Assembly: GCA_041491305.1 (NCBI GenBank)
Contig: JBGPUU010000001.1
Location: 15,500 to 79,499, forward strand
DNA: 64,000 nt
Direction: 5' to 3'
Origin: Candidatus Methanoperedens sp.
GTDB lineage: Archaea > Halobacteriota > Methanosarcinia > Methanosarcinales > Methanoperedenaceae
The notes beneath the pieces were generated by a model, which searched no databases, was not told the origin of the DNA, and was given only the letters and a program-made list of their open reading frames with translations. This document shows, one piece after another, positions 4,716-64,000 of the stretch. Every line of letters starts with the position of its first letter. Positions within the stretch are counted from its first letter, which is position 1. The position numbers and the translations under genes are program-made.

Positions 4716-5024
4716 ATGAAACCGATTATCACAGCGGAACTTGAGATTGTCGCTCTGGGCACGGGAAGCACAAGCATGAGTTCTCATATTTCCGAGGCTG
4801 TAAAAGCTCTCGAAAAGTCTGGTATCAAATACCAGTTAACCCCGATGGGGACAGTAATAGAGGTATCTTCCATCGATGAAGCTTTCAATGCAATGAGAGC
4901 AGCGCACGAAGCGGTTATTAAGAAAGGCGTAAAGAGGGTAGTCATGCACATTACGATCGATGACAGAAGGGATGCTCCAAAGGGTATGGACGAGAAAATA
5001 GAATCTGTAAAAAGTAAAATTTAG
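4716..5024 (+). CDS. MTH1187/YkoF-family thiamine-binding protein
   Basis: GGAG before ATG 4716; TSMSSHI...YQLTPMGTVIE...IDDRRD. Confidence 0.85.
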   Translation: MKPIITAELEIVALGTGSTSMSSHISEAVKALEKSGIKYQLTPMGTVIEVSSIDEAFNAMRAAHEAVIKKGVKRVVMHITIDDRRDAPKGMDEKIESVKSKI

Positions 5025-5067
5025 ACCACTTCTTCCCATTCATAGGCGGGAGGAAGTCACGGGGAAC

Positions 5068-7110: not shown

Positions 7111-7160
7111 ATTGAACTGAAGCCAAATAACCAATGTTAGATAAAAATGCTCATTGTGAA

Positions 7161-7826
7161 CTATCCAATCTTTTCCATCCAGATTTCAAGCTCGAAATTA
7201 ACGAAAGTCCACTCCCTTGTATCTCGTAATTCAGCCAAAAGAGTCCTGAAATCTTTTTCGTAAACATCCTTGAATTCGAAATAGGTCAGGAAATCATAGC
7301 TGAGCGCATCATTAAGACAGCGTGAATAGTAGAGCTTACGAAAAATTCGATCCACATACTTAAGTCCAATTGCCGTGTGGCCCTCGCTGATGCCGGTATT
7401 TTGGAAATGAGCTTGCCTCTGGTCATGTGCAAGTTTCCACCAATCTTCCGATTTTCCAATTGGAATCAAAACTGCTGTGGTGTGTTCTGATGGTTCCAGT
7501 TCTGAGATAGAACGCCTGTTTAGTTCCTGAAGCTGGGCATCATCGGTGTACTGAAAATGTCGGGTGACACCTTGAAACTGAATTAATGATGGGCGGATAG
7601 GAAACCTGGATTGCTCCGGGAATGATAACGGTGTTGATGCCTCAATGCGCACACAATCTGAAACCCGGGCGAGGTTGTATGAAACTTCACCTTTCACGGG
7701 GACAACCTTTCGTACACGGTAGCGACTGAGATAGCGTATGTGATAATTATTCAACTGCTTCAAAGATGTTTCTTTCATGCCAAAAAGAAAATATACCCAT
7801 GTTCGCATTTGAGGACTCATAAACAT
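7161..7826 (-). CDS. cld: Chlorite dismutase, short-chain (clade 2-like)
   Basis: LIPIGKSEDWW, proximal His (GHT), IFRKLYYSR, YDFLTYFEF, LRDTREWTFV. Confidence 0.75.
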   Translation of the reverse strand: MFMSPQMRTWVYFLFGMKETSLKQLNNYHIRYLSRYRVRKVVPVKGEVSYNLARVSDCVRIEASTPLSFPEQSRFPIRPSLIQFQGVTRHFQYTDDAQLQELNRRSISELEPSEHTTAVLIPIGKSEDWWKLAHDQRQAHFQNTGISEGHTAIGLKYVDRIFRKLYYSRCLNDALSYDFLTYFEFKDVYEKDFRTLLAELRDTREWTFVNFELEIWMEKIG

Positions 7827-7955
7827 TTTAGTTTGTATTTTTGGTCTAAATAGTCAAATTATTTCGCAAAGCCTGATTGCTAACTCTTTATTAGCAATTT
7901 TCGAGTACGGGTAAAGCGCAGGTATTTCATAATTCTGTAATGACTGCAATATTGA

Positions 7956-8618
7956 TTAAGAATTCATGGGATTAAAGCTTTGCCGCAGCGCCATGTTTAT
8001 TTGCTCGATAAAAACCTCTATCGGCTGCGCACCCGTAAACGCAGTATCCTCATTGATCACGATATGAGGAACGCTCATAATTCTGTACTTCTGAACAAGA
8101 TAGGGGAACTCTATCATCTCTATGACATCTGACCGTATAAACTCGCTCTCGATGGCCAATTGATGCGCCATACGTGCAGCTCTCGGGCAGAAAGGGCATG
8201 TAGGAGAAACAAATATTTGTAAATGGACTGGTTTTTTTATTTCTGAAAGTCTCTTCTTGATGCTATCCGGCAGGGAGGTGGCACCCCTTGAGACGTCTAT
8301 TATGTCTTCCACAATGACGGGAAACTCATATCCTGCTGGCACACCATAGTACCTGATGCCATAATCTTTGTTTCCAACGATCGCAATGGCAGGGATCCTC
8401 TTGATGTTGTATTTTATATCTTCGTCACCGTTCTTGACAAAGTCATAGACTTTTGTCTTTATTTTCGGAGATAATGTCCCAAGTTCCAGAACCAGTTCCC
8501 TTGTATCCTTGCAGAACAGGCACTCATTTTCCTGGGAGAAAACAATCAGTTCAACGTCTCCTGTAAGTTTTTCGAATTGTTTTTTTATTTGTTCTTTTTG
8601 GATATCATTGAGGACCAT
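7956..8618 (-). CDS. Protein disulfide oxidoreductase (PDO, two thioredoxin folds)
   Basis: CLFC and CPFC motifs; YGVPAGYEF, SVPHIVIN. Confidence 0.9.
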   Translation of the reverse strand: MVLNDIQKEQIKKQFEKLTGDVELIVFSQENECLFCKDTRELVLELGTLSPKIKTKVYDFVKNGDEDIKYNIKRIPAIAIVGNKDYGIRYYGVPAGYEFPVIVEDIIDVSRGATSLPDSIKKRLSEIKKPVHLQIFVSPTCPFCPRAARMAHQLAIESEFIRSDVIEMIEFPYLVQKYRIMSVPHIVINEDTAFTGAQPIEVFIEQINMALRQSFNPMNS

Positions 8619-8657
8619 ATGCTTCAACCAACGGATTTCAGAAATTTTTCCACTCTC

Positions 8658-8816
8658 TCAAAAACCATTCTCACCTATTTCATTCTTCCCACTGTAAAAG
8701 GACCTGCCATCCTGTACATAACTTAAATCCACATTTAACGATAACAACTTCCCCGGCCCTCACCTCTTCCCGTAGTGCTCTCCAATTATCTTCTTGTAAA
8801 ATGTTCTCCCTCCCAT
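8658..8816 (-). pseudogene. N-terminal remnant of aconitase-family (LeuC/HacA-like) large subunit
   Basis: MGGRTFYKKIIGEHYGK/VRPGKLLSLNVDLSYVQDG with one frameshift, resembling the MG.T..EKI..H...V.PG......D....QD start of LeuC; truncated after about 50 codons. Confidence 0.5.
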
Positions 8817-9061
8817 GTTTTCTAACCTCTACTTAAATATATGTTATTCATCGTATTAACCAAATGGATTTCTGTTTCGGGGTGAATTTATTAATGCCGA
8901 GTCCTTCCAAAAAGCAGGGTTAGGTATACATGCTGGAAACCCGCAGCATAGTACCCTGCTCTACGGCCTTGATCTGAAAAACGATGTTCAGCGTGCTTAA
9001 TGTGAGCAAGCAGAAAATATCTGGTAAGATGAATTTAAAGTAATGGTTTAGAATAATTTAT

Positions 9062-10453
9062 ATGAGTAATAATCATACAAACTACTTCATGGAAAAACTT
9101 GTTATAATCGGAAGTGGTTCCGGGGGCCTACCTATAGCTTCTACGGTAGCTAAATTTAGAAAAAACCAATATGATGTTACGGTTATCACACAAGACACAG
9201 ATATTGCTTACTCTCCCTGCGGCATCCCATACGCGCTTAAAGGTGACATCCATTCGTATAAAGACCTTATAATGCATTCTAAAGAACACTATACAGAGTC
9301 TGGAATAAAAATATTCACGAATACTTCTGTGGAGGAAATTGATCCTCAAAAGAAGAGAATACGCTATAAAAGTACATGGCTTGATTACAATTACCTTGTA
9401 ATTGCCACAGGAACAACCCAGAGAGTACCGAAAGTTGAAGGCATAGATCTTAATGGTGTGTTCAGTGCGCACATAAAAACCTTAAAAGAAGCTGAAAAAT
9501 TTGAGGAATTTATTTCGAATTCAAAAAAATCATTAAAGGTTATAATGACAGGCTCAAGTTCCATCGATCTTGAATTTGCAGTAGGACTAAAAGAGCGCGG
9601 TCATGATATCATAATTGTTGAAAAAGCAGCACATTTGATGCCAGATAGACTAGATACCGATATGGCAGAATACGTTCATAAATATCTGCATAGAATGGGT
9701 ATCACGGTAATCACTATGCAAAAGCTATCCGAAATAACAGGAACCGAGGCAATAGAATCGGTGAATTTTGGTGATTTAACCCTTCCTGCGGATTTATTGA
9801 TGCTTGGAACAGATTTTAAGCCAGAGATAGCTCTTGCAAAAAGTGCAGGTTTTGACATAGACAAGGATGGAATAAATATTGATGAAAAAGCGCGAGCGCT
9901 TATGAAAGGGAAAGCTGTAAATGGAGTTTATGCTTCAGGGGCATGTGCTCACGCGATCAACATAGTGACTGGAAAACGAGATTTCATGTACACAGGATCA
10001 ACATCAATACAAAAATCAAGAATAATATCAGAGCAACTTCTTGGCATAGATGCCAGCATAAAAGGAAGTACTAACCCAATGATTGCTGTGCTCCGGGATC
10101 TGAATATTGGCACAGTAGGATTAACAAAAGAGGAGGCAGAAAAAAACAATATCGAAGTAAAAACTTGTGTTACTGAAGAAAAAAGCACAGCAAGATATTA
10201 TCCTGGCGGTACCCCTGTTCATATGAAACTGCTTTTTGAAAAAAATTCTCTCAGGCTTATTGGAGCCCAGATTATATCCGAAGGATATGGAATTAAAGAA
10301 CGGGTTGATGCCCTGTCGATTGCAATGAGCTGCAAGCTTACCGCAAAAGAACTGGCGCACCTTGAAACCGGATATTCTCCTCCAGTATCACATATCTTTG
10401 ATATAATGGTTGAATTGGCAAACAGTGTGTGGCTTGAAAATAACATGAGATAA
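9062..10453 (+). CDS. FAD-dependent NADH oxidase / CoA-disulfide reductase family oxidoreductase
   Basis: VIIGSGSGG, AYSPCGIPY (redox Cys), LVIATG, ARYYPG, LIGAQI, GYSPP. Alternative start at 9089. Confidence 0.85.
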   Translation: MSNNHTNYFMEKLVIIGSGSGGLPIASTVAKFRKNQYDVTVITQDTDIAYSPCGIPYALKGDIHSYKDLIMHSKEHYTESGIKIFTNTSVEEIDPQKKRIRYKSTWLDYNYLVIATGTTQRVPKVEGIDLNGVFSAHIKTLKEAEKFEEFISNSKKSLKVIMTGSSSIDLEFAVGLKERGHDIIIVEKAAHLMPDRLDTDMAEYVHKYLHRMGITVITMQKLSEITGTEAIESVNFGDLTLPADLLMLGTDFKPEIALAKSAGFDIDKDGINIDEKARALMKGKAVNGVYASGACAHAINIVTGKRDFMYTGSTSIQKSRIISEQLLGIDASIKGSTNPMIAVLRDLNIGTVGLTKEEAEKNNIEVKTCVTEEKSTARYYPGGTPVHMKLLFEKNSLRLIGAQIISEGYGIKERVDALSIAMSCKLTAKELAHLETGYSPPVSHIFDIMVELANSVWLENNMR

Positions 10454-10557
10454 AGCATGTAAATCTTTTATTTGCTTCAGGTTTAAACCCAAATCCGAAA
10501 AGTACATAAGATTTTAGAACACAATGTATTTCGTGAGATTTTTTTGGGGTAATCAAT

Positions 10558-11126
10558 ATGAAATTCAATGGAGTAAATCATCTTGCAATGGCAACAGGTA
10601 ATATGGATAAAACCATACTTTTCTGGCGTGATTTTCTTGGCATGAGCCTTGTAGCTGGTCTTGGTCAGCCAGGGTATAGACATTACTTTTTTGAGATACC
10701 ACCCTTCGACCTGATAGCATTCTTTGAGTGGGAAGGCGTTGAGGCTATGGTAAAAAAGGAACATGGAAGGCCTGTAAGCGGCATGTTTGGTTTTGATCAT
10801 ATATCATTTGGGTTGAAGAAGAAGACGACCTGTGGGAACTAATGGATAAGCTTGAAGCCGCGGGTTTCTGGGTATCGGATTTAATCGACCATGGTTTCAT
10901 TCAATCTATTTGCAGCTATGACCCTGATAACATTTCAGTTGAGTTCAGCCATAATGTGAGCGGCATCGATACCAAAAAGAATCCTAGAATGGGAGATGCG
11001 CAACCAGCAAATTTAGCACTTGAAGGCTCGGAACCTCATAAGAATAAATGGCCAAAAGTCAAACGTGCAACGCCCCGTGGAGTGGAGACCCGGAAAATCC
11101 ACGCTGGGAAAAGTATAGGTATATGA
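10558..11126 (+). pseudogene. VOC/glyoxalase family protein, split by a 1-bp frameshift at about 10810
   Basis: GVNHLAMAT...FDHISFG; restoring one G in TTTGGG(G)TTGAA gives GVEEEDDLWELMDKLEAAG, joining ORFs 10558 and 10842. Could be a homopolymer sequencing error. Confidence 0.75.
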
Positions 11127-11159
11127 TAAAACCCGAGTGGCTTAAAATAGGAGTATAAT

Positions 11160-11999
11160 ATGTCAGAAGGATTACCAATATTCGGAAAAGAAGTGTTTGA
11201 TACACTTTTCATAGATTACAGAATTATGGTCACATTTGCGATCATCTCTATAATCATGTTCCTTTCAGGAATGTACATGCAGTTAGCTAAATGGGGACAG
11301 GGCATCCCCGAAGGTGCAACAAAACCCCTTGGAGCATGGAGCACACTTAAATTAATCATTCATAGAATTTTTGAGAAAGGTATTTACCCTGCTCTTGGAG
11401 TAATAGTCTTCGATGGTTTATTCCAGCGCAGAACATGGCGAAGAAGAAAGACCGAATGGTTGATGCATATATTTATTTTCTGGGGATGGTTCGGGTTGTT
11501 TATATTGACAATAACTGCTGCTGCAGCCGAATTCTATGGGCCGTTCATCCTGAATGAACCTGTAGGCCAGCCAAAATTATTTATCGATACATTTGCGGCT
11601 CTGAAAACCCCGAATCTCATATTTTCTTCAATGTTAACTATTGGAATAATTATAGCGATTGTGAGAAGAATCTTTTTTGCAGATGTCCCACCCGCAAGAT
11701 TCACAAGCGTTGATTGGATATCAATTACCGGGATTGCTATAGTTATAATATCTGGATTCCTTGCTTATTATCTCAGGATAGATTATTATGGAATAACGGG
11801 GCGAATGTTAATTGGTCAATATGTATTTACAGTTCCAAAATTCTTTAATAATCCTGCAGTTCTTTTTCATGAGGTATTTACCCTGCTGTTCTGTGTTGGT
11901 TATTTACCATTCAGCAAACTCTTCCATATGTTTGTTACCCCGCTTGTAATTATGATGAACAAAGGTGGCTATGTTGAAGTTAATGAAGTTAATGTATAG
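11160..11999 (+). CDS. Cytochrome b membrane subunit, HdrE/NarI-like
   Basis: About 5 TM helices with heme His residues: WLMHIFIFWG, LFHEVF, LPFSKLFHMF. Confidence 0.8.
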   Translation: MSEGLPIFGKEVFDTLFIDYRIMVTFAIISIIMFLSGMYMQLAKWGQGIPEGATKPLGAWSTLKLIIHRIFEKGIYPALGVIVFDGLFQRRTWRRRKTEWLMHIFIFWGWFGLFILTITAAAAEFYGPFILNEPVGQPKLFIDTFAALKTPNLIFSSMLTIGIIIAIVRRIFFADVPPARFTSVDWISITGIAIVIISGFLAYYLRIDYYGITGRMLIGQYVFTVPKFFNNPAVLFHEVFTLLFCVGYLPFSKLFHMFVTPLVIMMNKGGYVEVNEVNV

Positions 12000-12061
12000 G
12001 GAATTACTTGTTAGTCATATAACGAACAATATTTAAGCATAAATCAATATATACTAAAATC

Positions 12062-13372
12062 ATGGCTAAAAATAAACCTGCAATCTCGCTTGAAAATTTT
12101 ACCCCCACACAACTGATGGAGTATGACGCTTGCACACGATGTGGTGAATGCGTCAAGTATTGTCCTACATATGAGGGCCGAAATAAAGACCAGAATATCG
12201 AGCCCAGAGATAAGATCCTGCGGTGGAGAGAGTTTGTAATAAGGAGTTATGGCTGGAAAGCCAAGCTCTTCGGACCTGCAGCTATTCCCCCTGAGGAAAT
12301 TAAAAAGTACACGGATGACCTCTACAACTGCACAACTTGTGGAATGTGCGGCACTGTTTGCTGCGCTGGCATAGATACCATAGAACTCTGGGAATCAAAC
12401 CGCGCCAATCTCGTGAAGCATGGGACAGGACCTTATGGTAAGCAGAACCTCTTCCCAAAGCTAATAGGAGAAGGACATAATCCTTATATGAAACTGCAAA
12501 AAGACAGGCTTGCATGGATGACCCCTGATATCAAGGTAGCTGAAAAATCCGATATTGCATATTTCATAGGATGCACAGCAGGATACAACCAGCAGGTGCT
12601 TGGTGTCAGCACGGCAAGGATTTTGAACAAACTCAATGTTCCATTTATGGTACTTGGTGAAGATGAATGGTGCTGTGCCTCTGCGCTCATAAGGACAGGG
12701 CAACAACATTTAGGTGATGTGCCAAAACAAGCTGCACTGCATAATATTGAAGCGCTCAAAGCAAGAGGTGCAAAGAGAGTTATATTCGCATGCGCCGGAT
12801 GTTTCAGGGCCGCCAGGATAGACTGGCCGCGAGCATATGGAAAAGAATTACCCTTTGAGGCAATTCACATGTCACAGTTCCTTGCAGAGCAGCTTAATGA
12901 TGGAAAGATTAAATGGGAAAAGACGTTGAACAAGACCGTGGCCTATCATGACCCCTGCCATCTCGGAAGACATGTAGGCGTGTTTGAGGAGCCCAGAAAC
13001 GTCCTTAAGAGCATGCCGGGCATCAAGCTTGTAGAAATGGAGAGAAACCGCAATGAACAGCGCTGCTGTGGTGCTGGTGGAGGCGTTAAAGCTGGTCTCC
13101 CTGACCTTGCACTTGCTGTTGCTAAAGATCGCATGAATGATGCCAAAGCAACCGGCGCCATGGTATTGATCAGCACATGCCCGTTCTGCAGGCGTAACCT
13201 TCTTGATGGTAGAGATGACCTCAAGATGGATATGTACGTAGACGATCTTGTGGTTCTAACTGCAAACCTGATGGGGCTCTCAACAGATGTCAAACCACCA
13301 GCACCGGGTGCCCCAAAAGAGAGCATCAGCGACCTGTTCAGGACCCAGACAATACCACCAAAAATAAAATGA
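12062..13372 (+). CDS. HdrD-like Fe-S oxidoreductase (2x[4Fe-4S] + 2 CCG domains)
   Basis: [52 protein letters not shown]. Confidence 0.85.
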
Positions 13373-13400
13373 TAAGAATTTATTAAAAGGAGGTTTTTAA

Positions 13401-13949
13401 ATGAAGAAAATGACAGAACAGCATCTTATCAATGCATTTGGAGGAGAAAGCCAGGCAAATATGAGGTATTTGCATTTTGCAAACCAGGCTGAAAAAGAAA
13501 AACTCAATAATACGGCACGCTTATTTCGTGCAATCGCCCATGCTGAATATATACATGCAGGGGACCATTACCAGGAGCTAAAACACCTGGATGGGGGATT
13601 TGTCGCAAATAGCATGGCCGCTTTTGGCCCTGGTGATTCCAGGAAAAATCTCAAACTTGCCATCGCGGGGGAGACATTTGAAATCGAGGAAATGTATCCT
13701 GTATACCTGGAAGTAGCAAAATTCCAGGGAGAAAAGGGTGCCCAGAAAAGTTTTGAATGGGCGTATGGCACTGAAAAAATGCATAAGCAGCTTTATGAAA
13801 AAGCACTGGATTCGGTCAACTCTGGAAAGGACGTTAAACTCGGCCCGATCCAGGTTTGCGAAGTTTGCGGATATACACTGGAAGGAGAAGCACCTGATAA
13901 ATGTCCACTGTGCAATGCATCCAAAGACAAATTTAGTGCATTTAAATAG
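13401..13949 (+). CDS. rbr: Rubrerythrin
   Basis: AFGGESQANMRY, AEYIH, GETFE, EKMH; C-terminal rubredoxin CEVC...CPLC. Confidence 0.92.
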   Translation: MKKMTEQHLINAFGGESQANMRYLHFANQAEKEKLNNTARLFRAIAHAEYIHAGDHYQELKHLDGGFVANSMAAFGPGDSRKNLKLAIAGETFEIEEMYPVYLEVAKFQGEKGAQKSFEWAYGTEKMHKQLYEKALDSVNSGKDVKLGPIQVCEVCGYTLEGEAPDKCPLCNASKDKFSAFK

Positions 13950-53442: not shown

Positions 53443-54234
53443 CTATGGCAGGTATCTTTTCTTTTCAGGATTGCTGACCGAATGATTAAAAGGTTGCGGG
53501 GGAAGAATGGTAATATTTACAGTGGTATCCGTATGGCATCCTTCGCATGTCCAGTATCCTCTTGAAATGAATCTGCTTGAACCGTTTGCATTGCCCGGTG
53601 TTCGTCCGAATGGCTGGCTAATTCCATAGCTTGAGGACTGGTTGCTGGCCTGTAGATAAAATGGCTGGTGTGCGTTTGACTGGCTTAAATTATATCCTGC
53701 TGCCGTAATGTTGGGGAAACTCCCGAGAATCTGCGGGCTGTTATCGGAATAAATCCTGTTTCCGTGGCACCTGTCGTCATCGCATGTTATGACTGTTATT
53801 CCCGTATGCGTGGTTGCGTTGAAGAGAGTGGCGTTATGGCAAAGCATGCAGATCTCGGCACTATCTATTTGTCCGTTCCTGTTCGCATCAAGGCTGACGT
53901 TTACCAATATATTCAGGTTGCTTGAGTTCTGCCACTTTCGTTCAGAGATGTTCCAGTTCCATACAATATTATTATAATCAGTTATGGAATTTCCATTGTA
54001 ACTTATCCCGCCAATGGAAAGATATGAGGTGTAATTAGCATTTCCAGCCGCAGCTTTATGTTTTTCATAAACATATCCGCTATGCTCAACCTCAGATAAT
54101 ACATCGGTATGGCATTTCTCGCATGAAACACTGCTGTAAAAGGTGTGCTGCCCTGCAAGAAGAGAAACCGTATTGGGCATCACGTATAAACCCAATATCA
54201 TCAAAGCAAAATATAATATGATTTTCCTGTTCAT
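53443..54234 (-). CDS. Tetraheme c-type cytochrome, candidate extracellular filament subunit
   Basis: Signal/TM then SLLAGQHTFY; CEKCH, CMLCH, CDDDRCH (CX4CH), CEGCH. Confidence 0.8.
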   Translation of the reverse strand: MNRKIILYFALMILGLYVMPNTVSLLAGQHTFYSSVSCEKCHTDVLSEVEHSGYVYEKHKAAAGNANYTSYLSIGGISYNGNSITDYNNIVWNWNISERKWQNSSNLNILVNVSLDANRNGQIDSAEICMLCHNATLFNATTHTGITVITCDDDRCHGNRIYSDNSPQILGSFPNITAAGYNLSQSNAHQPFYLQASNQSSSYGISQPFGRTPGNANGSSRFISRGYWTCEGCHTDTTVNITILPPQPFNHSVSNPEKKRYLP

Positions 54235-54238
54235 CTTA

Positions 54239-54676
54239 TCACCCCGAACTGTTTGCAAAGAATTGTTTTGCATGCCTGTACAGGGTCGCAGTATCGCCGG
54301 TTATGTAATGGGCCGACTGGTTCAACCCGCTGACGTTATTGCCGCCGTCATTGTGAATAGTGATATTTCCTGCATCATCATAATTTGAATGGCAGTTGGT
54401 GCAGTAGATATTCTTTGTAAGGTTATGCGCTGCATTGATATTGTAAATTTCAGTACTGTTAGGATTATAGCCATGGCATATACATCCCGCATTGGCGTGG
54501 GCGCTCACGCTCACGATTGATACCTTTGTAGGATGGCATTTTATGCAGAAATCTGTTGCTGTTGTTGTGTTTTTATAGACCGTATGGCTTCCTGAGAATA
54601 TCGCGTATGTTGTAAACATGGAGGCGGCTAACAGTACCCCGAAAATCGCAAACAGTAACAATATTTTCTTATCCAT
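54239..54676 (-). CDS. Small multiheme c-type cytochrome (2 CXXCH + 1 CXCH)
   Basis: Signal/TM then AIFSGSHTVY; CIKCH, CICH, CTNCH. Confidence 0.8.
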   Translation of the reverse strand: MDKKILLLFAIFGVLLAASMFTTYAIFSGSHTVYKNTTTATDFCIKCHPTKVSIVSVSAHANAGCICHGYNPNSTEIYNINAAHNLTKNIYCTNCHSNYDDAGNITIHNDGGNNVSGLNQSAHYITGDTATLYRHAKQFFANSSG

Positions 54677-54683: not shown

Positions 54684-57600
54684 TCATGAATATACCTTGT
54701 CCGGATATGTATGACAGTAATTACAATCTATGGTCTTATTGTAACCATAAGTGGCAATTGCGTTATTATAATATGACGAATCATGGCAGACGGTGCAGTC
54801 AGTGATATTTACAACATTTATTCCATTGTAATTATATGTGCTCGGACTGCTTGTTATGTTATGCCTGTCTGTCTCATTCTTTGGATCACTCTGGTAGGCA
54901 TGGCAGTCCTCGCATGCTTTTCTTGCGCCAATGTTATTATGTCCTTTCGTGTGGCAGTCCTGGCATGCCAATGAACCGTGCGGGCTCCCACTGAACATGG
55001 TCTGGTTCACGAATTTGTCCGGAGAACCTACCCCATTCATGTATTCATAGCTGAAATGGCAGCTTGTGCATAACCCTGTGTTTACATTATGAACAAATTC
55101 TTTTATAGTGCCGTCAGACAGGGATTTACCATGGCAGCCCTTGCACGTGGTATCGTTATAATCAGGTGTCAGGGAATGGTTATAATAGCCGCTCAAATTG
55201 TAAGGTGAATAGATTGAGGAGTTCGTAATCTCAGGAGGGACTGAAAGATTGACGCCGGTAAAGGCCTGAGTCATGTTTATGTAGATCATTCCGCTGTTTG
55301 AATAACCCTGATAGTGACATCCTGCACACCAGTTGCCGTTACCGGAAATCTGGGAATCCATAATGTTACTTCCGCTCCAGTTGGAGGGTCTTCCAAGGCC
55401 TGTTGCATTATGTTTTGAGTCGCCGTGGCAATAATCGCACATACTCTCCTGGCTTGTATTAGTCCAATACCCCTGCTGCGTGCCGTTCCAGAAAGAACTA
55501 TTCAGCGAGCTATTGCCATGCTGGACTGTAGAGACTTTTGGAGGCGTTTTTGACAGCTTTGAATCCAATGTATTTTGCTGGTGGCAATCGGTGCAATTTA
55601 CAGCGCTCTGGTTCCCGGTATCATATGTGCCATCAGGCTTGAGATATGTCATCGGATGGATATTTTTCTTATCCGGACCTGTATGGCATTCCGTGCAATT
55701 GACCGAATTGTTGTGCATTTCTTTATATGTTGTCACCGCTCCGGTATAATTTATGGTGCCATTTGATACATTCAGTCCATGGCAGGCCAGGCAATATGAA
55801 CTGTTTATATTGTTGATTTCAGGTTTAATTAATTGAGCGCCGTGCAGTGATGAATTTGTACTATTGTGACATTCGTTTACACTGCATGACGGGTTTGAGG
55901 AATTGTATCTCAGGCTGTGATTGGAAATGCTACTATTGGCAACGTCCTGGAATACGCTGCTGAATTCACCTGTTGCATTTCTGTGGCAGTATATACAATA
56001 ATCATAACTTCCCGCGGTGATTCCAAAGTTTGACCTGTTAGTGCCGTAATGGTAGAAGCTCGTGTTTCCTCCGCTAACACCAACCCCGTCGCTTGCGAAT
56101 GAGCCATAATCCGTATCATTATTGGGAGTTATCATTCCGGAAACATTTTCATGGCATCCCAGGCAGGAGGCAAGGTCGCTCGTCCGGTTATCCAGAGCAC
56201 TGATATTTGTGCCGTTCCTGTAATGGTTGGATATAATCGTTGCATTGTATGCTCCTGCATTGCTTCCATTTGCTAAGTGGCAGTCCGGGCAGGTATAGGG
56301 TGTATCTCTCTTATCCGGATGTGTGTTGTTAGCTACTGCGTAGCCGCTTGAGTTATGGCATGCCCAGCAGCTTGCGTTTATACCGTAGCCTGAAGCGTTA
56401 TTGCTGTTCAAGTTTGCATGCACGGATATGCTGAAATTCGAGCCGTCTATGTAATTCAGGCCAGTGAAGTTCTGGGGATTGGACTTGTTATGGCAGTCAA
56501 GGCATCCGGGACCGCCGCCGAGCACTACTTCGTTTGAATGGAAATCAACCGGTATGCTCTGGTTTCTGGTATGACAGGCATAGCATGAATCGCTGCTTAT
56601 TGTAAATCTATTCCCGAACATGTTGCTGGCGTTTACCTGCAAAGCATTGCCCCATCCATTTCTTATTGTTTCAACACTCTGGTTGTGGCAGAACAGGCAG
56701 TTCGTGGTAGTGGGCATGCGGTCTATGGGAACTGTCCAGTGAGGTGGATCGTACTTGCCACCTGGTCCATCCGGGTAGTTATACTGTGCATAGTAACCAC
56801 CGAAATTAGATTTGTTGAAATAAGGGGCTGCGTGACAGGTTCCTTCCCCGGTGACTGCATTGTAACTATAGCAAGTTGTGGGATATGTATCAGTGCCGCC
56901 CTGTGAGGGTACGCTTACGTTTGTGCCCGTTATGCTGGAATAATTCGTGTGGGAATAAACATAAGGCAGCGTATTGTTGATGTCGCTTCTCAGGGAATAG
57001 AAAGCTGTCCTGTTCGGTCCTGTGAATATGGAGCTTACGTTTATGTGACAGTTTTCGCAAAGTTTAACACTCTGGAGGTTAGCTGTGATCAAGCTGGGAT
57101 TTCCAGTGCCGTGGCAGGCATAGCAGTCTGACCCGTCCAGGGTGGCTGAATTATTTTCCCAGTCAAATCCTCCGCTTGTCTCCCAGCCGCCGTGTATTAT
57201 CCAGGGAAGCCGCAAGGGTTGGGAGTGTAAGGTTGTTGCATTGGTACCGTTGTGGCAGTTGCCACAGGACTGGGTTTTTGCAGGATGTCTTGTGATAATG
57301 GCGTACCATTCCGTTGCATTTACCTGGGATTTGTGACACAGCGAGCAGTCGATGCTGTTTTTGATAAGGCTTGTATTGGTGGAGTAGTGGGATATATTGG
57401 AATAGATGGCATCTATATTGTCGCCACCATTTATATAAAAACCACTTGTATTAAAACCACCCATGCTTTTTATGTGGCAGGCGGCGCAATCTACCGAAGA
57501 GTTCCAGAAATCCGAGGTTATCTTGTAGATATCCGTGGTATAGTTCGCCGGGATATGATTGTATATTTTCTTTTCAGTCAGGTCATTAATCCTGCCAGCA

Positions 57601-59129
57601 TTGGTGTATGTGAGGTTTACAGTCGCGTTATGGCATGCAACGCAGCCGGTAACTATTATTGTGGTGTTAAACTCTGTGCCGTTGGTATGGCAAGCCCAGC
57701 AGGCTTTGTCCACTAAATCCGAAAGCTCGGTCGTATTGGTTGCATTCCGGTTTAGATATTTATGGGTTGAATTCGAGGACGAATTCATTGATGAAACATC
57801 CACTTTAGCTATCGAATTTGTAGTATTTGATACGCCATGGCAATTAACACAGTCAGAAATACTCCCGCCCGGATGCGATATTACAAGCGATTCCTGCCCT
57901 GATATAGCAAAAGGGGACAGCGAACCGGTGCCGGCGCTTAACGTGCTGTTTGTAATGTCCCGGATAGTTTCAAGCTGCTCCCATTGTGTAACATTCCAGT
58001 GATATATAAAAAGTGTCCTTTCATCTATATTGTTAAGTTCGGCTTTGTTGTAGTGTATTGTTATTTCAGCAGATGAAAAAGATATATTCTCCGCGCTTAT
58101 CTCCACATATTTTACAACCCTTCCCGGAACCGGAACAGACACAGGGTTTCTTTTCCCGAAATCATCGAGAATGACTTTTCCTTTCCCGTGAACTGAAGCA
58201 TTTTCCAGTTTCAGGGCGGCATTTTTTGTGGGGATTGCATCAATTTTAAAGATTTTTGGATTATCCGGTGCTGCACTGGCTACTGGTATAAAAAAATCAA
58301 GGATTGAATAAAAAAATACTGCAGGCCCGGTGATAATCGGGAAAGCCACTCCGATTAGCCCGGAACTGTTTACCTTACGATAAGATTTGACAAGCGAATT
58401 ATTTTCAAATATCTCGACTGTTGAATTGACAAGAGAACCTGATGTATCTATGACATTGATATCCCACTCCGGGGAAGGTGCCACAATCGCAAAGACTGAC
58501 AAGGAATTCACTGTTGTACTAATGACATTATTTGCTACATCGATTTTTGTCGGCAGTTCGTTCCAAACCTGCCCGGCATTATCGTAACTGTAAATAGTAA
58601 GATTATTCACATCCAACCCTTTGACTTCCGTATCAGTGAATTTTATTGATATATCAACGTTAGAAAAAGAAACGCCGCCGGAATTGACTTCTACATACTT
58701 TACCGGCGTGCCGGGCGCTGATACATTTACGCTCCCGGGCTGGTTAATGCCGTAATTTTCCAGCACCACCCTTCCTTTTGGTGATTCCCCTGAAATCCGA
58801 AGATTGATTGATAATCCCTTGTTGGCAAAATCATCATAACTGATTACAGCGCCAGGAATTCCGTGCCAGCTTATAAGATTGACATTCGGTCTTGGCGGTC
58901 CGCTTGATACCCCTTCCCCGCTTAACGATATTGCACCGGTTAACGGATTTCCTGCGGCATCTGTGAATGTTATCTCGCCGCTTGTTTTTAGCGCTTCGGT
59001 CCGGGTTGGTATTGGAGGGAAATACAATAAAGCCGCAGCTATACCTGATAAAACTACAAACACAAGTATTATGAGCCTGGTTTTAGAGAGCCCTGCTCTA
59101 TCCCGTAAAATATCCATTTTTTTGACCAT
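54684..59129 (-). CDS. Large multiheme cytochrome c (26 CXXCH + CX11CH + CX4CH) with two N-terminal PGF-pre-PGF-like domains
   Basis: Motifs counted by hand; N-terminal TM segment; duplicated VKYVE...W..L.T......SLS.FAI domains. Confidence 0.9.
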   Translation of the reverse strand: MVKKMDILRDRAGLSKTRLIILVFVVLSGIAAALLYFPPIPTRTEALKTSGEITFTDAAGNPLTGAISLSGEGVSSGPPRPNVNLISWHGIPGAVISYDDFANKGLSINLRISGESPKGRVVLENYGINQPGSVNVSAPGTPVKYVEVNSGGVSFSNVDISIKFTDTEVKGLDVNNLTIYSYDNAGQVWNELPTKIDVANNVISTTVNSLSVFAIVAPSPEWDINVIDTSGSLVNSTVEIFENNSLVKSYRKVNSSGLIGVAFPIITGPAVFFYSILDFFIPVASAAPDNPKIFKIDAIPTKNAALKLENASVHGKGKVILDDFGKRNPVSVPVPGRVVKYVEISAENISFSSAEITIHYNKAELNNIDERTLFIYHWNVTQWEQLETIRDITNSTLSAGTGSLSPFAISGQESLVISHPGGSISDCVNCHGVSNTTNSIAKVDVSSMNSSSNSTHKYLNRNATNTTELSDLVDKACWACHTNGTEFNTTIIVTGCVACHNATVNLTYTNAGRINDLTEKKIYNHIPANYTTDIYKITSDFWNSSVDCAACHIKSMGGFNTSGFYINGGDNIDAIYSNISHYSTNTSLIKNSIDCSLCHKSQVNATEWYAIITRHPAKTQSCGNCHNGTNATTLHSQPLRLPWIIHGGWETSGGFDWENNSATLDGSDCYACHGTGNPSLITANLQSVKLCENCHINVSSIFTGPNRTAFYSLRSDINNTLPYVYSHTNYSSITGTNVSVPSQGGTDTYPTTCYSYNAVTGEGTCHAAPYFNKSNFGGYYAQYNYPDGPGGKYDPPHWTVPIDRMPTTTNCLFCHNQSVETIRNGWGNALQVNASNMFGNRFTISSDSCYACHTRNQSIPVDFHSNEVVLGGGPGCLDCHNKSNPQNFTGLNYIDGSNFSISVHANLNSNNASGYGINASCWACHNSSGYAVANNTHPDKRDTPYTCPDCHLANGSNAGAYNATIISNHYRNGTNISALDNRTSDLASCLGCHENVSGMITPNNDTDYGSFASDGVGVSGGNTSFYHYGTNRSNFGITAGSYDYCIYCHRNATGEFSSVFQDVANSSISNHSLRYNSSNPSCSVNECHNSTNSSLHGAQLIKPEINNINSSYCLACHGLNVSNGTINYTGAVTTYKEMHNNSVNCTECHTGPDKKNIHPMTYLKPDGTYDTGNQSAVNCTDCHQQNTLDSKLSKTPPKVSTVQHGNSSLNSSFWNGTQQGYWTNTSQESMCDYCHGDSKHNATGLGRPSNWSGSNIMDSQISGNGNWCAGCHYQGYSNSGMIYINMTQAFTGVNLSVPPEITNSSIYSPYNLSGYYNHSLTPDYNDTTCKGCHGKSLSDGTIKEFVHNVNTGLCTSCHFSYEYMNGVGSPDKFVNQTMFSGSPHGSLACQDCHTKGHNNIGARKACEDCHAYQSDPKNETDRHNITSSPSTYNYNGINVVNITDCTVCHDSSYYNNAIATYGYNKTIDCNYCHTYPDKVYS

Positions 59130-59289
59130 GGGGTTTCTACATTGTTTTCATTCCAATCCTGTTTTCCTATCACCTTAATTGTTATTTATGTGCGTCCAAA
59201 ATAAATAGGTTTACATGATTTTAATTAATTACATGAACATTTATTATCAATCCGGAACCCGGCTTTTGGGAATGTTTTGAATGGCATTA

Positions 59290-60126
59290 TCACGATGTTA
59301 AATAATCCGTATGACGTCCGCTGTATACATACCCGACACCGAATGCGGAAAATGCAAGTACGAAGATGCTGAAAATAATCAGCCATGCAATCCTTTTTCC
59401 GGTCCATCCCGCGTTCATCCGCAGGTGCAGGCAAATCCCGTATGTGAACCATGAAATTAAAGACCATGTCTCGATGGGGTCCCAGCCCCAGTACCTGCCC
59501 CATGTCTGGTTTGCCCAAATTGCTCCTGCCGCTATCATTATAGTAAGGGCGAAAAATCCCATCGCCACGAAATGATACATAAGATCGTCCATTGTTCTTA
59601 ATCCGGGAAGCCTTTCGTAAAATGAATCCTGGATTCCGGTATTTAACTGCTTCTCTTTCAATATATAAAGAGCAGCAGTGGCTGCCGCAACCATTACCGA
59701 CCCGAAGCCAAGGCTTGCAAAACCTACATGGGCTATCAGCCAGTAACTCTGGAGAGAAGCCGGTATCATCTGGATATCCCTTGAATAAGTCGAACCTATA
59801 GCCATCAGCAAAAAGGATGCAGGCAGCACTATAAATCCTGCAATCTTAATCTTTTCATATTTTTGCTGCGAAAATAAGAATATAACTACTGAAAACCATG
59901 CATATTTTGATAAAACCTCGTACATACTGATGTAGGGACCGTGCCCGGTTTCTATCCACCGAAGGGCTATGGAAACACTGTGGAACAACAAGCCGGCAAA
60001 CGCGGTACTGACTGCAAGATTTATTCTTTCTTCTTTCTTGAAAACAAGGCAGTACAGGTATATAGCCGAACTGAGCGCATAAAGCACTGCAGCGGCCACG
60101 TAGATAATCCATTCAGTCTGTGCCAT
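59290..60126 (-). CDS. ccsA: Cytochrome c synthase CcsA/ResC (System II)
   Basis: WWD domain GAIWANQTWGRYWGWDPIETWSLISW; conserved His (HVGFA, SGRH). Confidence 0.92.
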   Translation of the reverse strand: MAQTEWIIYVAAAVLYALSSAIYLYCLVFKKEERINLAVSTAFAGLLFHSVSIALRWIETGHGPYISMYEVLSKYAWFSVVIFLFSQQKYEKIKIAGFIVLPASFLLMAIGSTYSRDIQMIPASLQSYWLIAHVGFASLGFGSVMVAAATAALYILKEKQLNTGIQDSFYERLPGLRTMDDLMYHFVAMGFFALTIMIAAGAIWANQTWGRYWGWDPIETWSLISWFTYGICLHLRMNAGWTGKRIAWLIIFSIFVLAFSAFGVGYVYSGRHTDYLTS

Positions 60127-61525
60127 GTAACCTCTTCATTTTATCGACAATACCTGAATATTCTTCTTCATATAAAGACCTGAACTTATCAGCCCGCCCC
60201 CCGATATAAATCTCCATTGCATCGGAATCACTGACAACCTCAACCCATATCCTCTTAGGGATTATAAAGAAAGATAACATGAGGCTGAATATCATAAATC
60301 CGACTCCCGCATACACAAGAAGCGTCCCGTCATCCTTCACCACGTAGAAATTACTCCAGTATTTTATATCATAAAATCCCAGGGTTCTGTCATAGCCAAG
60401 GTAATTATCGTGTATTTTTATTGTATCATTCAGCCTGAGCGTACCATCGTATATCTGCTTTCCCCCGTCAAATATCCTCAAAAACATGATTGGTGTTTTT
60501 TCGGCTTCGGATTCCATTAGTTGTCCTGTTAAAGGCGCAGTCATGTATACCATCAATCCCCCTTCAAGACCCGTATTCCCCATTTGGAAAGATGAGACAT
60601 ACCTCCCGCTGTTATCGAGGTCTTGTGCGGTTATATACGAGCCGGAATATACCGTCCCGTCCGGATTCTTCAACAACAGCAGCGGCGCAAGACCATAGAC
60701 ATTCCCAAGAAACGTGTATCCATTATAAGTCATCATGTGATTTGAAAATACAATATCAGTTTTCATCTTCTGGCCATTCTCTATTATAGAAAGCTCGCCT
60801 GCTGCTCCGCGAGGCGTATTTGTTTCATCCTTGTAATCAGGGAAGAATTTCAGAAGTGAAATACCGAATCCCTGGTGGTTTTCGTTAAAAAAATGACCCT
60901 CGTTGATAAACATATAGTTCGCGTGCTCTTCTTCCAGGGTCTGCCCTTCTATTAATCGCATATCCCCTTCCATCCTGCCCAAACTTCCGTAAACCACAGC
61001 TATTATGATGAAAAGTATGCTGATGTGAAACAGCGATGTGCCCAGTATCCCGAACCTGTTTTTTTCCGCAAGAATGCAATTCCCCTGCTGCCGTACCTTA
61101 TACCCTGCTGACTTAAGTAAAGAACCCGTTTCAGAAATAACACTATTGCTATCTTTTTTTGTTTTAATTACCGAGCTGTTCTCAAGTCCTGTAATGTATG
61201 CCTTTTTCTGGAATTGCTGGGCGTTGAGCCTTCGAAAAGCGCTTTTCAGCATCGTTCTTGTGCAGAAAAGAGTATTAACGACAAGGAGCGCCACTATGCT
61301 TAAAAATATAACTGATGAATAAAGATGGGTAAAACCGATTTTCTCAAAGGTTTCAGCCTGCCCCGGATTCGTAGATTTCCATTTATCATATACGTCAGGT
61401 TTGAGCTGCGATTGCTGGGGTACATAGGTCCCGATTATCGAAAATACGATAATGAGAGTAATAAGAACTATCGCAAGTTTTCTGGAGCTAAAAAAAGTAG
61501 CGATTTTCCCGGTACTAAAATCCAT
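60113..61525 (-). CDS. resB: Cytochrome c biogenesis protein ResB/CcsB (System II)
   Basis: SSRKLA...SIIGTYVPQ, NTLFCT, FHISIL, large extracytoplasmic domain, DDGTLLVYAG...KRIWV; overlaps ccsA. Confidence 0.88.
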   Translation of the reverse strand: MDFSTGKIATFFSSRKLAIVLITLIIVFSIIGTYVPQQSQLKPDVYDKWKSTNPGQAETFEKIGFTHLYSSVIFLSIVALLVVNTLFCTRTMLKSAFRRLNAQQFQKKAYITGLENSSVIKTKKDSNSVISETGSLLKSAGYKVRQQGNCILAEKNRFGILGTSLFHISILFIIIAVVYGSLGRMEGDMRLIEGQTLEEEHANYMFINEGHFFNENHQGFGISLLKFFPDYKDETNTPRGAAGELSIIENGQKMKTDIVFSNHMMTYNGYTFLGNVYGLAPLLLLKNPDGTVYSGSYITAQDLDNSGRYVSSFQMGNTGLEGGLMVYMTAPLTGQLMESEAEKTPIMFLRIFDGGKQIYDGTLRLNDTIKIHDNYLGYDRTLGFYDIKYWSNFYVVKDDGTLLVYAGVGFMIFSLMLSFFIIPKRIWVEVVSDSDAMEIYIGGRADKFRSLYEEEYSGIVDKMKRLHGTD

Positions 61526-61609
61526 TATTTTATCTTTCCTGACTTATCTTACTATACCCTTGATAAGTAGATATAAATAACTTTGCAGACGATGTAAACG
61601 TAAACTAAA

Positions 61610-62077
61610 ATGACGCCTCTAAATAAAATAATCGTCCTGATTGCCGTGGGTTCAGTTCTCGTTTTATCGGCAGCCTGGTGGGATTCACAATCAGGAAACA
61701 ATTCGGCTTTTATCAAACTTGGCGGTGTTTCATTTCATACATCAATAGAACCTGGAATCACAGAGGCAAAGAACTCAAGCAAACCTGTTTTCCTGTATTT
61801 CAGGTCGGAAACGTGTTACTGGTGCATAAGATTTGAAAATGAAGCTTTATCTGATAAAAGGGTCATCGATAAACTCAATAATAATTTTGTTCTTATTTCG
61901 ATTGATACATTCAAACAAAAAAATGTTTCCCTGAATCTCAATGTACGAACCACCCCGTATATGATTTTCTTTACAAAAGACGGCGAAGAGATATCAAGAA
62001 TCCCGGGTTACCTGCAAACTGATGATTTCCTTGTACAATTAAATTCCGTATCGGACAAACTCAACCGGAGCTCTTAG
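61610..62077 (+). CDS. Membrane-anchored thioredoxin family protein
   Basis: N-terminal TM; TCYWC, RTTPY cis-Pro loop, RIPGY. Confidence 0.85.
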   Translation: MTPLNKIIVLIAVGSVLVLSAAWWDSQSGNNSAFIKLGGVSFHTSIEPGITEAKNSSKPVFLYFRSETCYWCIRFENEALSDKRVIDKLNNNFVLISIDTFKQKNVSLNLNVRTTPYMIFFTKDGEEISRIPGYLQTDDFLVQLNSVSDKLNRSS

Positions 62078-63521
62078 TTGCGGTTATATATTTTTCAATA
62101 AACTTCCGAACCTCAGGAGGCATCTCGCCTTTCATCTGGTTTGAGAGGTAAGAATCGTTGATGAGCAGCCGCGTGACCTCTATCATGTAGTTTTTCTTGA
62201 ATTCACTCATCTCCTCAATTTTTTCAAGCTTTCCCATGTAAAAATCCCGGAATCCCTTTAAAAGATGAATATTTAGTTCCTCCCGCGTCATGTTAATGGG
62301 CTTGACTATCGGTTCGATAAGATTGTATTTTGAATAATCAAATTCCTCTATGAATGGTGCAAGTTCAGGATAAATATCAGAATAAGGCCATGGGGCAATT
62401 GCAAGGAAAAACGCAAGGTCAGGATTATAGTACTGCGCCAGTTTTCGTGCCGTCTCTATGGATCCGGGCGTTTCTTCAGGCATCCCGAGGACAAAGGACG
62501 TTTCCGAAATAATCCCGGTATTGTTTATCAATTCAATCGCTTCCCTTGACTGCTCTACCCTGATATTTTTCTGATAGCGGTCAAGCGTATCCTGGCTTGC
62601 GGATTCTGCTCCCACGTAAATATGCAGGATTCCCGCTTTTTTGTATTTATCAATTATATCCTTATCACGCAGGATGTCGTCCACCCTTGTTTCCATCAAT
62701 ATTTCAAGGTCAAGTTCTTTCGCGATAAGAAGATCAAGGATTTTTTCCCACCGTTTGCGGTCATACGTCGGTGTTTCATCGGCTATCATGGCAACATCCA
62801 CGCCGTAATTGCTGTTTAAGAATTCAAGCTCGGATACGAAGTTTTCAGGGCTTCTCCCTCTCCATTTCTCCCTCCAGAAAAGACGCTGCGAACAGAATGT
62901 GCATTTCTGGGTACAGCCCCTTGAAGAACTTACGACTGCAAGTGTGGAATTTTTCTTTGTCTTGAATGTATAATCCTTCCACTCTATAAGGTTCCATGCC
63001 GCAGGCATTACGTCCAGATTTGATACGAGCGGCCGTTCTTTCGTGCAGATGGTTTTCCCATCCCGCACATAAGCAATTCCCGCGACATCCGGGCTTAATC
63101 CTTCGAAAACCTGGCTGAGAAGTTCTGATGTGGTGATTTCACCTTCGCCGCGTATTATATAATCTACAACGCTGCTCTCTTTTTGCAGGATTTCCTTCCA
63201 GCAGAACGTGGGATGTATGCCTCCAAGGAGCGTAATTATTTCCGGGTTAACCTCTTTAGCAATTCTTAGAACCGAAATAGCATCGTAAAGGCTTGATGTA
63301 TATGCCGCTGTGCCCACTACATCCGGATTGGTTTCTTTTATGCGCCTTTTGATGTCGTCAAAAGTATGATATTTTGACATCGCATCGTATATGCTGACCT
63401 CATACCCGGCTTTTTGCAGGCTTCCGGCAACGTACACCATGCCAAGAGGCATCCATGTGCCTGCGGATTCGAGTACGCCGCAGTGGTATGGCGGTGTTAT
63501 TAACAGGACTTTATTGGACAT
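62061..63521 (-). CDS. Cobalamin-binding (class B) radical SAM enzyme
   Basis: PLGMVYVAG, PDVVGTAAYT, GGIHPT, GEGE, SSRGCTQKCTFC, GAES; ATG 63521. Confidence 0.9.
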   Translation of the reverse strand: MSNKVLLITPPYHCGVLESAGTWMPLGMVYVAGSLQKAGYEVSIYDAMSKYHTFDDIKRRIKETNPDVVGTAAYTSSLYDAISVLRIAKEVNPEIITLLGGIHPTFCWKEILQKESSVVDYIIRGEGEITTSELLSQVFEGLSPDVAGIAYVRDGKTICTKERPLVSNLDVMPAAWNLIEWKDYTFKTKKNSTLAVVSSSRGCTQKCTFCSQRLFWREKWRGRSPENFVSELEFLNSNYGVDVAMIADETPTYDRKRWEKILDLLIAKELDLEILMETRVDDILRDKDIIDKYKKAGILHIYVGAESASQDTLDRYQKNIRVEQSREAIELINNTGIISETSFVLGMPEETPGSIETARKLAQYYNPDLAFFLAIAPWPYSDIYPELAPFIEEFDYSKYNLIEPIVKPINMTREELNIHLLKGFRDFYMGKLEKIEEMSEFKKNYMIEVTRLLINDSYLSNQMKGEMPPEVRKFIEKYITATKSSG

Positions 63522-63549
63522 TTCGTTTCTTTGAATACCGCTATGATAA

Positions 63550-64000
63550 TTATTTTTTGTGTTTCTTCCAGAACCATAGCGCAACTATTGCTATTACTAA
63601 CGAAAATGCAGCTATGTAGGTTAAATATGTTTTTGTTACGGTTTTAACAATCTCTTTCCCATGGAAACTTTTTAATTCTCCTTCGACATGGCATCCCAGG
63701 CAATCCTTATTGCCAACATTACTATGCTGCGAATCCGAAGGCAGGGCTCCGGGATTGCCCCATGCTTTTCTAATATTTTCATTTTCCTGGATATGGCAGA
63801 AAATGCAATTTTTTGATTCAGGCATGAAATCGACAGGAGAATTCCAGTGGTAAGGGTCACCCCTGTTAAATATTGTGCCTGTATAATTTGTATTGAATGA
63901 AAAATAACCGCCTGCTTTTTCTTTATTCCCGAACGTCACTCCATGGCATGAACCCTGGCCGGTTGCTGCATCAAATCCGAAGCAGGAAGACCTTGTATTT
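63550..64000 (-). CDS. C-terminal part of a membrane-anchored multiheme cytochrome (5' end outside window)
   Basis: Frame open from the window end: CFGFDAATGQGSCH (CX11CH), CIFCH, CLGCH, C-terminal TM + WKKHKK. Confidence 0.85.
   Translation of the reverse strand, partial: NTRSSCFGFDAATGQGSCHGVTFGNKEKAGGYFSFNTNYTGTIFNRGDPYHWNSPVDFMPESKNCIFCHIQENENIRKAWGNPGALPSDSQHSNVGNKDCLGCHVEGELKSFHGKEIVKTVTKTYLTYIAAFSLVIAIVALWFWKKHKK

Follow-up and report, generated by a model that had tools for sequence, protein, structure and literature searches.

A probable accessory System II for cytochrome c maturation beside giant multiheme cytochrome genes in Candidatus Methanoperedens

The window considered here is a stretch of 64,000 nucleotides from Candidatus Methanoperedens sp. 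(assembly GCA_041491305.1, contig JBGPUU010000001.1, positions 15,500 to 79,499 of the forward strand), and it contains a small set of genes resembling System II, a bacterial pathway for the maturation of cytochrome c. At the core of this set are resB and ccsA, whose reading frames overlap by 14 nt, together with a thioredoxin gene that diverges from resB and a gene for a class B (B12-binding) radical S-adenosylmethionine (rSAM) enzyme (Table 1). Downstream of ccsA, three cytochrome genes follow on the same strand beyond a short gap. The first encodes a giant multiheme cytochrome (MHC) of 1481 aa with approximately 28 hemes, an N-terminal anchor and PGF-pre-PGF-like domains. Besides its CXXCH heme motifs, this protein contains CX11CH at residue 753 and CX4CH at residue 1082, and further unusual motifs are present in the 145-aa cytochrome (CXCH at residue 65) and the 276-aa cytochrome (CX4CH at residue 164). 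The initial annotation of this DNA had placed ccsA and resB upstream of the MHC genes beside a divergent membrane thioredoxin and had pointed out the CX11CH, CX4CH and CXCH sites. Since the gene calls match its coordinates exactly and every one of these motifs is located in the three cytochromes, that observation is confirmed. The locus is chromosomal Methanoperedens DNA, with a gene order shared with a 494-kb Methanoperedens contig and about 20 other Methanoperedens metagenome-assembled genomes (MAGs). The source genome itself (2.5 Mb, 150 contigs, 94% complete) is rich in cytochromes, having 35 open reading frames (ORFs) with at least two CXXCH motifs and 263 CXXCH motifs in total.

Table 1. 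Genes and intergenic regions of the System II locus, with positions in the 64,000-nt window.
Feature	Position	Strand or length	Description
ccsA (also ccsB/resC)	59290..60126	-	System II heme-handling synthase subunit, 278 aa
resB (also ccsB/ccs1)	60113..61525	-	System II partner subunit, 470 aa
Thioredoxin-like gene, membrane-anchored, CYWC	61610..62077	+	155 aa; candidate apocytochrome thiol reductase
Class B (B12-binding) rSAM gene, BchE-like	62061..63584	-	507 aa; conserved partner of ResB-CcsA
Giant MHC	54684..59129	-	1481 aa; 26 CXXCH + CX11CH + CX4CH; presumed client
Small cytochrome	54239..54676	-	145 aa; 2 CXXCH + CXCH; ortholog in same position in locus L008
Small cytochrome	53443..54273	-	276 aa; 3 CXXCH + CX4CH; ortholog in same position in locus L008
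Cytochrome 3' end with CX11CH module	63550..64000	-	upstream of rSAM gene; runs off the window
resB/thioredoxin divergent intergenic region	61526..61609	84 bp	putative TATA-like AT-rich boxes, read from sequence
Gap between ccsA and 1481-aa cytochrome gene	59130..59289	160 bp	AT-rich, read from sequence

At the level of sequence, the ResB-CcsA pair of the window has every feature expected of System II. In a profile search, CcsA matches PF01578 (E 2.5e-39, 135.6 bits) and passes the cut-off of the curated CcsB equivalog TIGR03144 (193.6 versus 187.6 bits). It can also be aligned with two CcsBA proteins of solved structure, from Bacteroides thetaiotaomicron and from Helicobacter hepaticus (PDB 7S9Y), and with respect to the latter its H133 corresponds to P-His1 (H761), H234 to TM-His2 (H858) and H272 to P-His2 (H897). 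The WWD motif, WGRYWGWDPIETW, occupies residues 209-221, and both the WWD and histidine positions are invariant or nearly so in an alignment of 20 sequences. ResB in turn covers positions 2-485 of the 486 in PF05140 (E 7.9e-55). Its hydrophobic helices span residues 17-35, 71-89, 160-178 and 404-422, with a large loop (179-403) between the third and the fourth. Because His167 in helix 3 is the sole histidine conserved in every one of 84 homologues from archaea and bacteria, it is the candidate for TM-His1 (TM, transmembrane). A search of ResB against solved structures gave no match.

The thioredoxin has a single N-terminal TM helix and a C69-Y-W-C72 motif, and it is recognized by the Thioredoxin_2 model (E 2.9e-14) along with DsbD C-terminal-like matches. 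Judged by sequence relationships, it is closest to an archaeal paralogue and is probably not an orthologue of ResA; it shares 41% identity with a thioredoxin beside ccdA and ccmF on contig C19 of the same genome. This anchored CXXC thioredoxin and a 241-aa CcdA-type protein encoded on C19 provide the components of a thiol-reduction branch. Pairwise comparisons with three Methanoperedens orthologues, at synonymous divergence (dS) of up to ~1, give ratios of nonsynonymous to synonymous substitution (dN/dS) of 0.12-0.14 for ccsA, ~0.2 for resB, 0.13-0.30 for the thioredoxin gene and 0.10-0.18 for the rSAM gene. All four genes are therefore under purifying selection.

A complete System I is also present in the source genome, where ResB occurs only once. 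The ccmA, ccmB and ccmC genes lie on contig C43 and ccmE on C114, a ccmF gene (757 aa) on C19 is flanked by two thioredoxins, an Fe-S membrane protein and the CcdA-type protein, and a split ccmF-like pair is found on C90. System II is thus not the sole maturation system of this organism, in keeping with the initial annotation, which had viewed it as a locus-specific device. Across a sample of 53 species-level Methanoperedenaceae genomes, CcmE is encoded by 52, including 34 of the 34 high-quality ones, versus 24 for ResB, and several 99%-complete genomes assembled into 10-40 contigs are among those without ResB. In this family, therefore, System I is universal and System II is accessory. The only other full-length ResB in the order belongs to one genus of a second family, ANME-2a (ANME, anaerobic methanotrophic archaea). 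Its named representatives are B4-03 and B4-08, MAGs of terrestrial ANME-2a (HR1) recovered from a mud-volcano enrichment that reduces Fe(III) (PMC10052568).

Two other kinds of archaeal match were set aside. Methanosarcina-like proteins matching the ResB model at ~20-40 bits over a short model region, with lengths of ~340-395 aa, were taken not to be System II; the Methanosarcina acetivorans control also matches the ResB model (examples are G113:C1:2212160-2212354 and G101:C1:1720971-1721102). In the wider phylum sample, peat archaea of the Bog-38/Methanoflorens type form a third, divergent lineage with 32-34% identity. All 24 of those sampled have a short ResB (~320-345 aa) beside a long CcsA (~355-369 aa), as at loci L154 (G204:C1:1531532-1533645), L155 and L156-L173. 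Being divergent and having neither the rSAM gene nor neighboring cytochrome genes, these pairs were rejected as examples of the same cassette. The lineage is presumed to consist of cytochrome-poor methanogens.

The rSAM gene, which the initial annotation overlooked, belongs to a conserved and co-transferred cassette with resB and ccsA. In archaea no other gene is as conserved or as tightly linked to the pair. Its product combines a B12-binding domain (PF02310) with a radical SAM domain (PF04055) and carries a CX3CX2C motif. The best curated match is BchE (TIGR02026) at 400.8 bits; since the cut-off of 481.35 is not reached, the protein is a relative of BchE rather than an equivalog, and its host is a non-phototroph. 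Between the two archaeal families the rSAM proteins are 70% identical, versus 39% for ResB. The distribution of the two genes is nearly the same. Within the family, both are present in 22 genomes and neither in 28, leaving two fragmentary assemblies with ResB only and one genome (66% complete) with the rSAM gene only. Among 401 genomes of the phylum, both are present in four, which are all of those with a full-length ResB, and neither in 397, with no genome having just one of them. Other B12 rSAM paralogues of the source genome are at most 33% identical and fall outside the clade of the cassette rSAM. As a separate observation, genome G047 (C16:60397-62376) combines a CX11CH module with the rSAM gene and has no ResB, so that the rSAM gene there keeps company with cytochromes instead of System II.

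The cassette is of bacterial origin. Named genomes yielded 80 loci when scanned, and the nearest non-archaeal CcsA proteins, from Candidatus Frackibacter and a Thermoleophilia MAG, are 43-44% identical. In the CcsA tree, the archaeal sequences form one clade (SH-aLRT 99) that is split into Methanoperedenaceae and ANME-2a and sits among clades of Bacillota, Nitrospirota and Actinomycetota. In the rSAM tree the archaeal sequences likewise group as a single clade (support 100) and divide in the same way; they are nested beside Nitrospirota sequences that are without exception linked to ccsA. Of the two, the rSAM tree gives the clearer signal, and it points to Nitrospirota. The nesting of both clades among bacteria argues that ANME-2 archaea received a ResB-CcsA-rSAM cassette from bacteria, the recipients probably being ANME-2d and terrestrial ANME-2a. 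Methanoperedens may then have recruited an archaeal thioredoxin paralogue to the cassette. That gene is kept beside resB in Methanoperedens loci and is missing from bacterial cassettes and from the ANME-2a loci, which consist of ResB-CcsA-rSAM.

Among the bacterial relatives, of which the MHC-linked cassettes of Nitrospirota and Bacillota are the closest, many loci of these two phyla are arranged as MHC-ResB-CcsA-rSAM. An rSAM gene whose product has 46-59% identity to that of the window adjoins ccsA at 13 of 18 loci in the Bacillota clade and 11 of 16 in the Nitrospirota clade, and at essentially none in the Actinomycetota clade. Homology between the archaeal and the bacterial MHCs that neighbor the cassette was not established, the comparison yielding a single weak match of 25%. 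Frackibacter, two Thermoanaerobacteraceae genomes and one Bacteroidota genome encode no ResB other than this one, so that there it must serve all of the cytochromes as a general-purpose system. Nitrospirota encode the cassette ResB alongside a canonical one. In some Bacillota the ResB-CcsA pairs are tandem or multiple (loci L089, L097, L102 and L103; genomes G551 and G554), and a Carboxydocellales MAG has up to ~6 ResB genes. This multiplicity suggests paralogue specialization of System II in cytochrome-rich Gram-positive bacteria.

The rSAM enzyme may have a role within the pathway. ResB, CcsA and the BchE-like enzyme could make up a previously undescribed three-gene MHC maturation module shared by Nitrospirota, Bacillota and metal-reducing ANME, in which the cytoplasmic rSAM enzyme would chemically modify either the exported heme or the apocytochrome. 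This idea is doubtful. Were it true, giant extracellular cytochromes loaded through the module would contain a modified form of heme c not available from System I.

Transcripts of the cassette have already been recorded in a relative. In Ca. M. ferrireducens (locus L021), mRNA levels in transcripts per million were 4.6 for the bchE-like rSAM gene, 2.0 for the thioredoxin gene, labeled 'DsbD', and 2.6 for each of resB and ccsA, with values for System I genes of 1.9 and 3.2 (ccmF), 2.5 (ccmC) and 5.0 (ccmE) (Leu et al. 2020, PMC7082337, Suppl. Dataset 1). The cassette orthologues are thus transcribed at levels similar to the ccm genes. As UniRef best-hit organisms, the same table gives a member of the Halobacteroidaceae for both ResB and CcsA, and one of the Nitrospirae for the rSAM enzyme, in agreement with the CcsA and rSAM trees; the main text of that paper has no discussion of cytochrome maturation (PMC7082337).

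The surroundings of the cassette are conserved as well. In Methanoperedens, the order B12 rSAM, thioredoxin, ResB, CcsA and then a large MHC is seen at 13 of the 15 loci with enough flanking sequence. Counting the ANME-2a loci, at one of two of which an MHC of 2233 aa with 45 hemes lies upstream of resB, a large MHC adjoins the cassette at 14 of the 17 archaeal loci with flank. The MHCs beside Methanoperedens cassettes range from ~860 to more than 2200 aa, many of them truncated by the end of the locus. At one locus (L020:6442-7306, Methanoperedens MAG Ig 1), two ORFs of 207 and 134 aa on the opposite strand intervene between resB and ccsA and may represent a mobile element that split the pair. 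Giants resembling the 1481-aa protein (E<=1e-40) are encoded by 23 of the 24 family genomes with ResB and by 11 of the 29 without it.

The explanation that best accommodates these findings, and one that is probably correct, is that ResB and CcsA would constitute a functional, horizontally acquired accessory System II that operates alongside System I, its genomic position coupling it to giant extracellular cytochromes. As the cassette is kept beside very large extracellular MHCs, its contribution would be extra or locus-coupled heme loading rather than recognition of special motifs. High-throughput or locus-linked loading of MHCs was one of two roles put forward by the initial annotation, and it fits both the adjacency of MHCs in the archaea and in most bacterial relatives and the near-constant presence of giants in genomes with ResB. 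Several points weigh against this explanation. Second copies of the cassette have ccmE and a divergent ccmF of 650-666 aa after ccsA in place of an MHC (L011/L042 on G009:C76, L014/L041 on G012:C3 and ANME-2a L040 on G108:C255), so adjacency to an MHC is not universal. The 11 genomes that encode giants in the absence of ResB indicate that System II is not required for them, and the associations counted across genomes are not phylogenetically independent. With regard to ancestry, the deeper nodes of the quick CcsA tree are unresolved, so no particular bacterial donor is indicated by it. That giants are enriched with ResB while System II is dispensable nonetheless fits an accessory role that adds capacity.

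Mechanistically, the proteins would act according to the known model of System II. Together, ResB and CcsA would make up a channel through the membrane, picking up cytoplasmic heme b by way of the TM histidines and presenting it externally at the WWD site, which the two P-histidines flank. There, the complex would form thioether bonds between the heme and the CXXCH cysteines of apocytochromes exported by Sec. The anchored thioredoxin may keep those cysteines reduced and would itself probably be re-reduced by the CcdA encoded on C19. Clients would most plausibly include the large MHCs next to the cassette.

The initial annotation had also proposed that the synthase is dedicated to the CX11CH, CX4CH and CXCH sites; on such a model, System I would be unable to handle them. 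The paradigm comes from Wolinella succinogenes, in which CcsA isoenzymes are reportedly divided among motifs, with NrfI for CXXCK, CcsA1 for CX15CH and CcsA2 for CXXCH. As in Wolinella, the organism has more than a single enzyme for attaching heme and a System II synthase gene stands beside one particular cytochrome gene, and the neighboring cytochromes do carry all three unusual motifs. The CX11CH module is conserved in its context, recurring beside the cassette in close relatives and at an ANME-2a locus. Searched for as the pattern C[YF]x[YF][ND]xx[TS]Gx[GA]xCH in DNA (the reversed control gave 0 matches), it is found in 10 of the 53 family genomes, 7 of which have ResB. These associations do not amount to a consistent link when the co-occurrence of the CcsA clade with CX11CH is examined from both sides. 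The pattern is missing from 17 of the 24 genomes with ResB, and the module is present in genomes G014 (99% complete) and G050 (of another genus), which have neither ResB nor the rSAM gene. At locus L051 (MFD03899 contig, 5008-13464), CX11CH cytochromes flank the rSAM gene with no thioredoxin-ResB-CcsA in between. Many Methanoperedens loci have no CX11CH in the MHCs downstream of ccsA, and CX4CH sites are present in cytochromes of the source genome encoded away from the cassette. Among the bacteria, 52 of 86 MHCs beside this CcsA clade are of the CXXCH-only kind, including proteins with 15, 25 and 31 hemes. Together with the genomes in which this ResB is the only one, the CXXCH-only neighbors tie the cassette to large MHCs in general and not to a motif. 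A motif-dedicated synthase is therefore unlikely. Unlike in Wolinella, no link to one motif was found here, and the other system is System I instead of a CcsA paralogue. What stands of the original interpretation is a bacterial-type System II within an archaeal MHC locus and beside System I; motif dedication does not.

A different possibility is that the two systems work as a hybrid, with ResB-CcsA serving mainly to export heme and hand it to paralogous CcmE and CcmF rather than acting as a self-sufficient synthase. The second-copy loci, where ResB-CcsA lies directly beside ccmE and the divergent ccmF, are what one might expect of such a pathway, and CcmE adjoins ResB in genomes G009 and G012. 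However, no ccm gene adjoins ResB-CcsA at the locus in the window, and maturation genes would be expected to cluster even if nothing is physically handed over. CcsA furthermore retains the full external active site (the WWD motif and both P-histidines) that is needed for synthase activity, which makes a hybrid quite improbable.

The CcsA-like protein could also be something other than a synthase, namely a HemX-type regulator or exporter tied to heme biosynthesis, with the rSAM enzyme belonging to tetrapyrrole biosynthesis and having no connection to heme attachment. KEGG labels the Ca. M. ferrireducens ortholog K02497 'HemX', and at the Thermoanaerobacteraceae locus L085 the rSAM gene is followed by sirC/cysG-N, hemA and hemC. 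Nevertheless, CcsA scores above the curated CcsB cut-off, has a cognate ResB with an invariant TM histidine, and is encoded at loci that are mostly flanked by MHCs. Heme must moreover be made by every Methanoperedens species, yet half of them lack the cassette, and a non-synthase role is accordingly very improbable. The remaining alternative, that the System II genes arrived with a transferred cytochrome gene and are now unused or decaying passengers, draws on the patchy distribution within the genus and the insertion at L020, but it is hardly credible for intact ORFs with invariant catalytic residues, dN/dS of 0.1-0.3 at dS of up to ~1, synteny maintained across two archaeal families and detectable transcripts in Ca. 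M. ferrireducens.

The accessory System II proposed here for Methanoperedens has much in common with that of Gram-positive bacteria. As in Bacillus subtilis (ResA-ResB-ResC; CcsB/CcsA), ResB and CcsA are encoded by separate genes with overlapping frames, and an anchored thioredoxin and a CcdA are likewise available, the latter elsewhere in the genome. The WWD motif, P-His1, P-His2, TM-His1 and TM-His2 are shared with System II at large, including the fused CcsBA of Helicobacter and Bacteroides (PDB 7S9Y, 25VK). Unlike the Gram-positive systems, the present one resides in an archaeal host with System I and has as its thioredoxin what is probably an archaeal paralogue rather than a ResA orthologue. 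It differs further in its constant neighbor, the BchE-like B12 rSAM gene, and in the placement of the cassette among giant MHC genes. Four aspects are unusual, namely the domain of the host, its possession of System I as well, the constancy of the B12 rSAM partner and the location within an MHC super-locus.

Additional maturation machinery beside a giant cytochrome has a precedent in the ANME-specific CcmF2 paralogue, which lies beside ANME MHC-B and is read as serving that cytochrome specifically (Chadwick et al. 2022, PMC9012536). The two cases differ in that CcmF2 is a System I paralogue whereas ResB-CcsA is a foreign System II. Only Ccm paralogues are discussed in that study, the main comparative analysis of ANME genomes, and CcsA and ResB go unmentioned (PMC9012536). 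A second parallel is offered by the cytochrome-rich anammox bacteria, for which System II is reported to be the maturation pathway (Ferousi et al. 2013, PMC4222556). There too it serves a very large complement of c-type cytochromes; it is the sole system in anammox bacteria and an accessory one in Methanoperedens. A literature search found no paper that discusses System II, CcsA or ResB in Methanoperedens or ANME, the only record being a supplementary annotation table, and no paper that links an rSAM enzyme with ccs genes. Since annotation pipelines already assign the names CcsB, CcsA and ResB, the identities of the genes are not new; the comparative picture is.

Within Methanoperedens, about half of the species thus possess an intact, selected and transcribed bacterial System II beside giant extracellular cytochromes, as does a terrestrial ANME-2a lineage that reduces Fe(III). 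This bears on how cytochromes are matured in cells whose extracellular electron transfer relies on exporting hundreds of hemes, and it adds a further example of bacterial genes that support metal-dependent methane oxidation. The class B rSAM enzyme that travels with System II across domains is a testable candidate. On a practical note, expression of ANME cytochromes in other hosts may require the cassette.

Two minor observations concern the giant cytochromes and the extent of the locus. A second Methanoperedens genome contains an open frame of 5615 aa (G009:C49) built from repeated modules resembling the 1481-aa MHC, a modular cytochrome of extreme size. In the source genome, the ends of two contigs (C1:78773-79705 and C57:15627-16560) overlap by 934 bp at 94% identity in opposite orientation, which probably reflects an assembly break caused by strain variation. 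With C57 joined on, the locus would gain two more cytochromes, one of 984 aa with CX11CH and one of 1670 aa with 25 hemes, as in L008.

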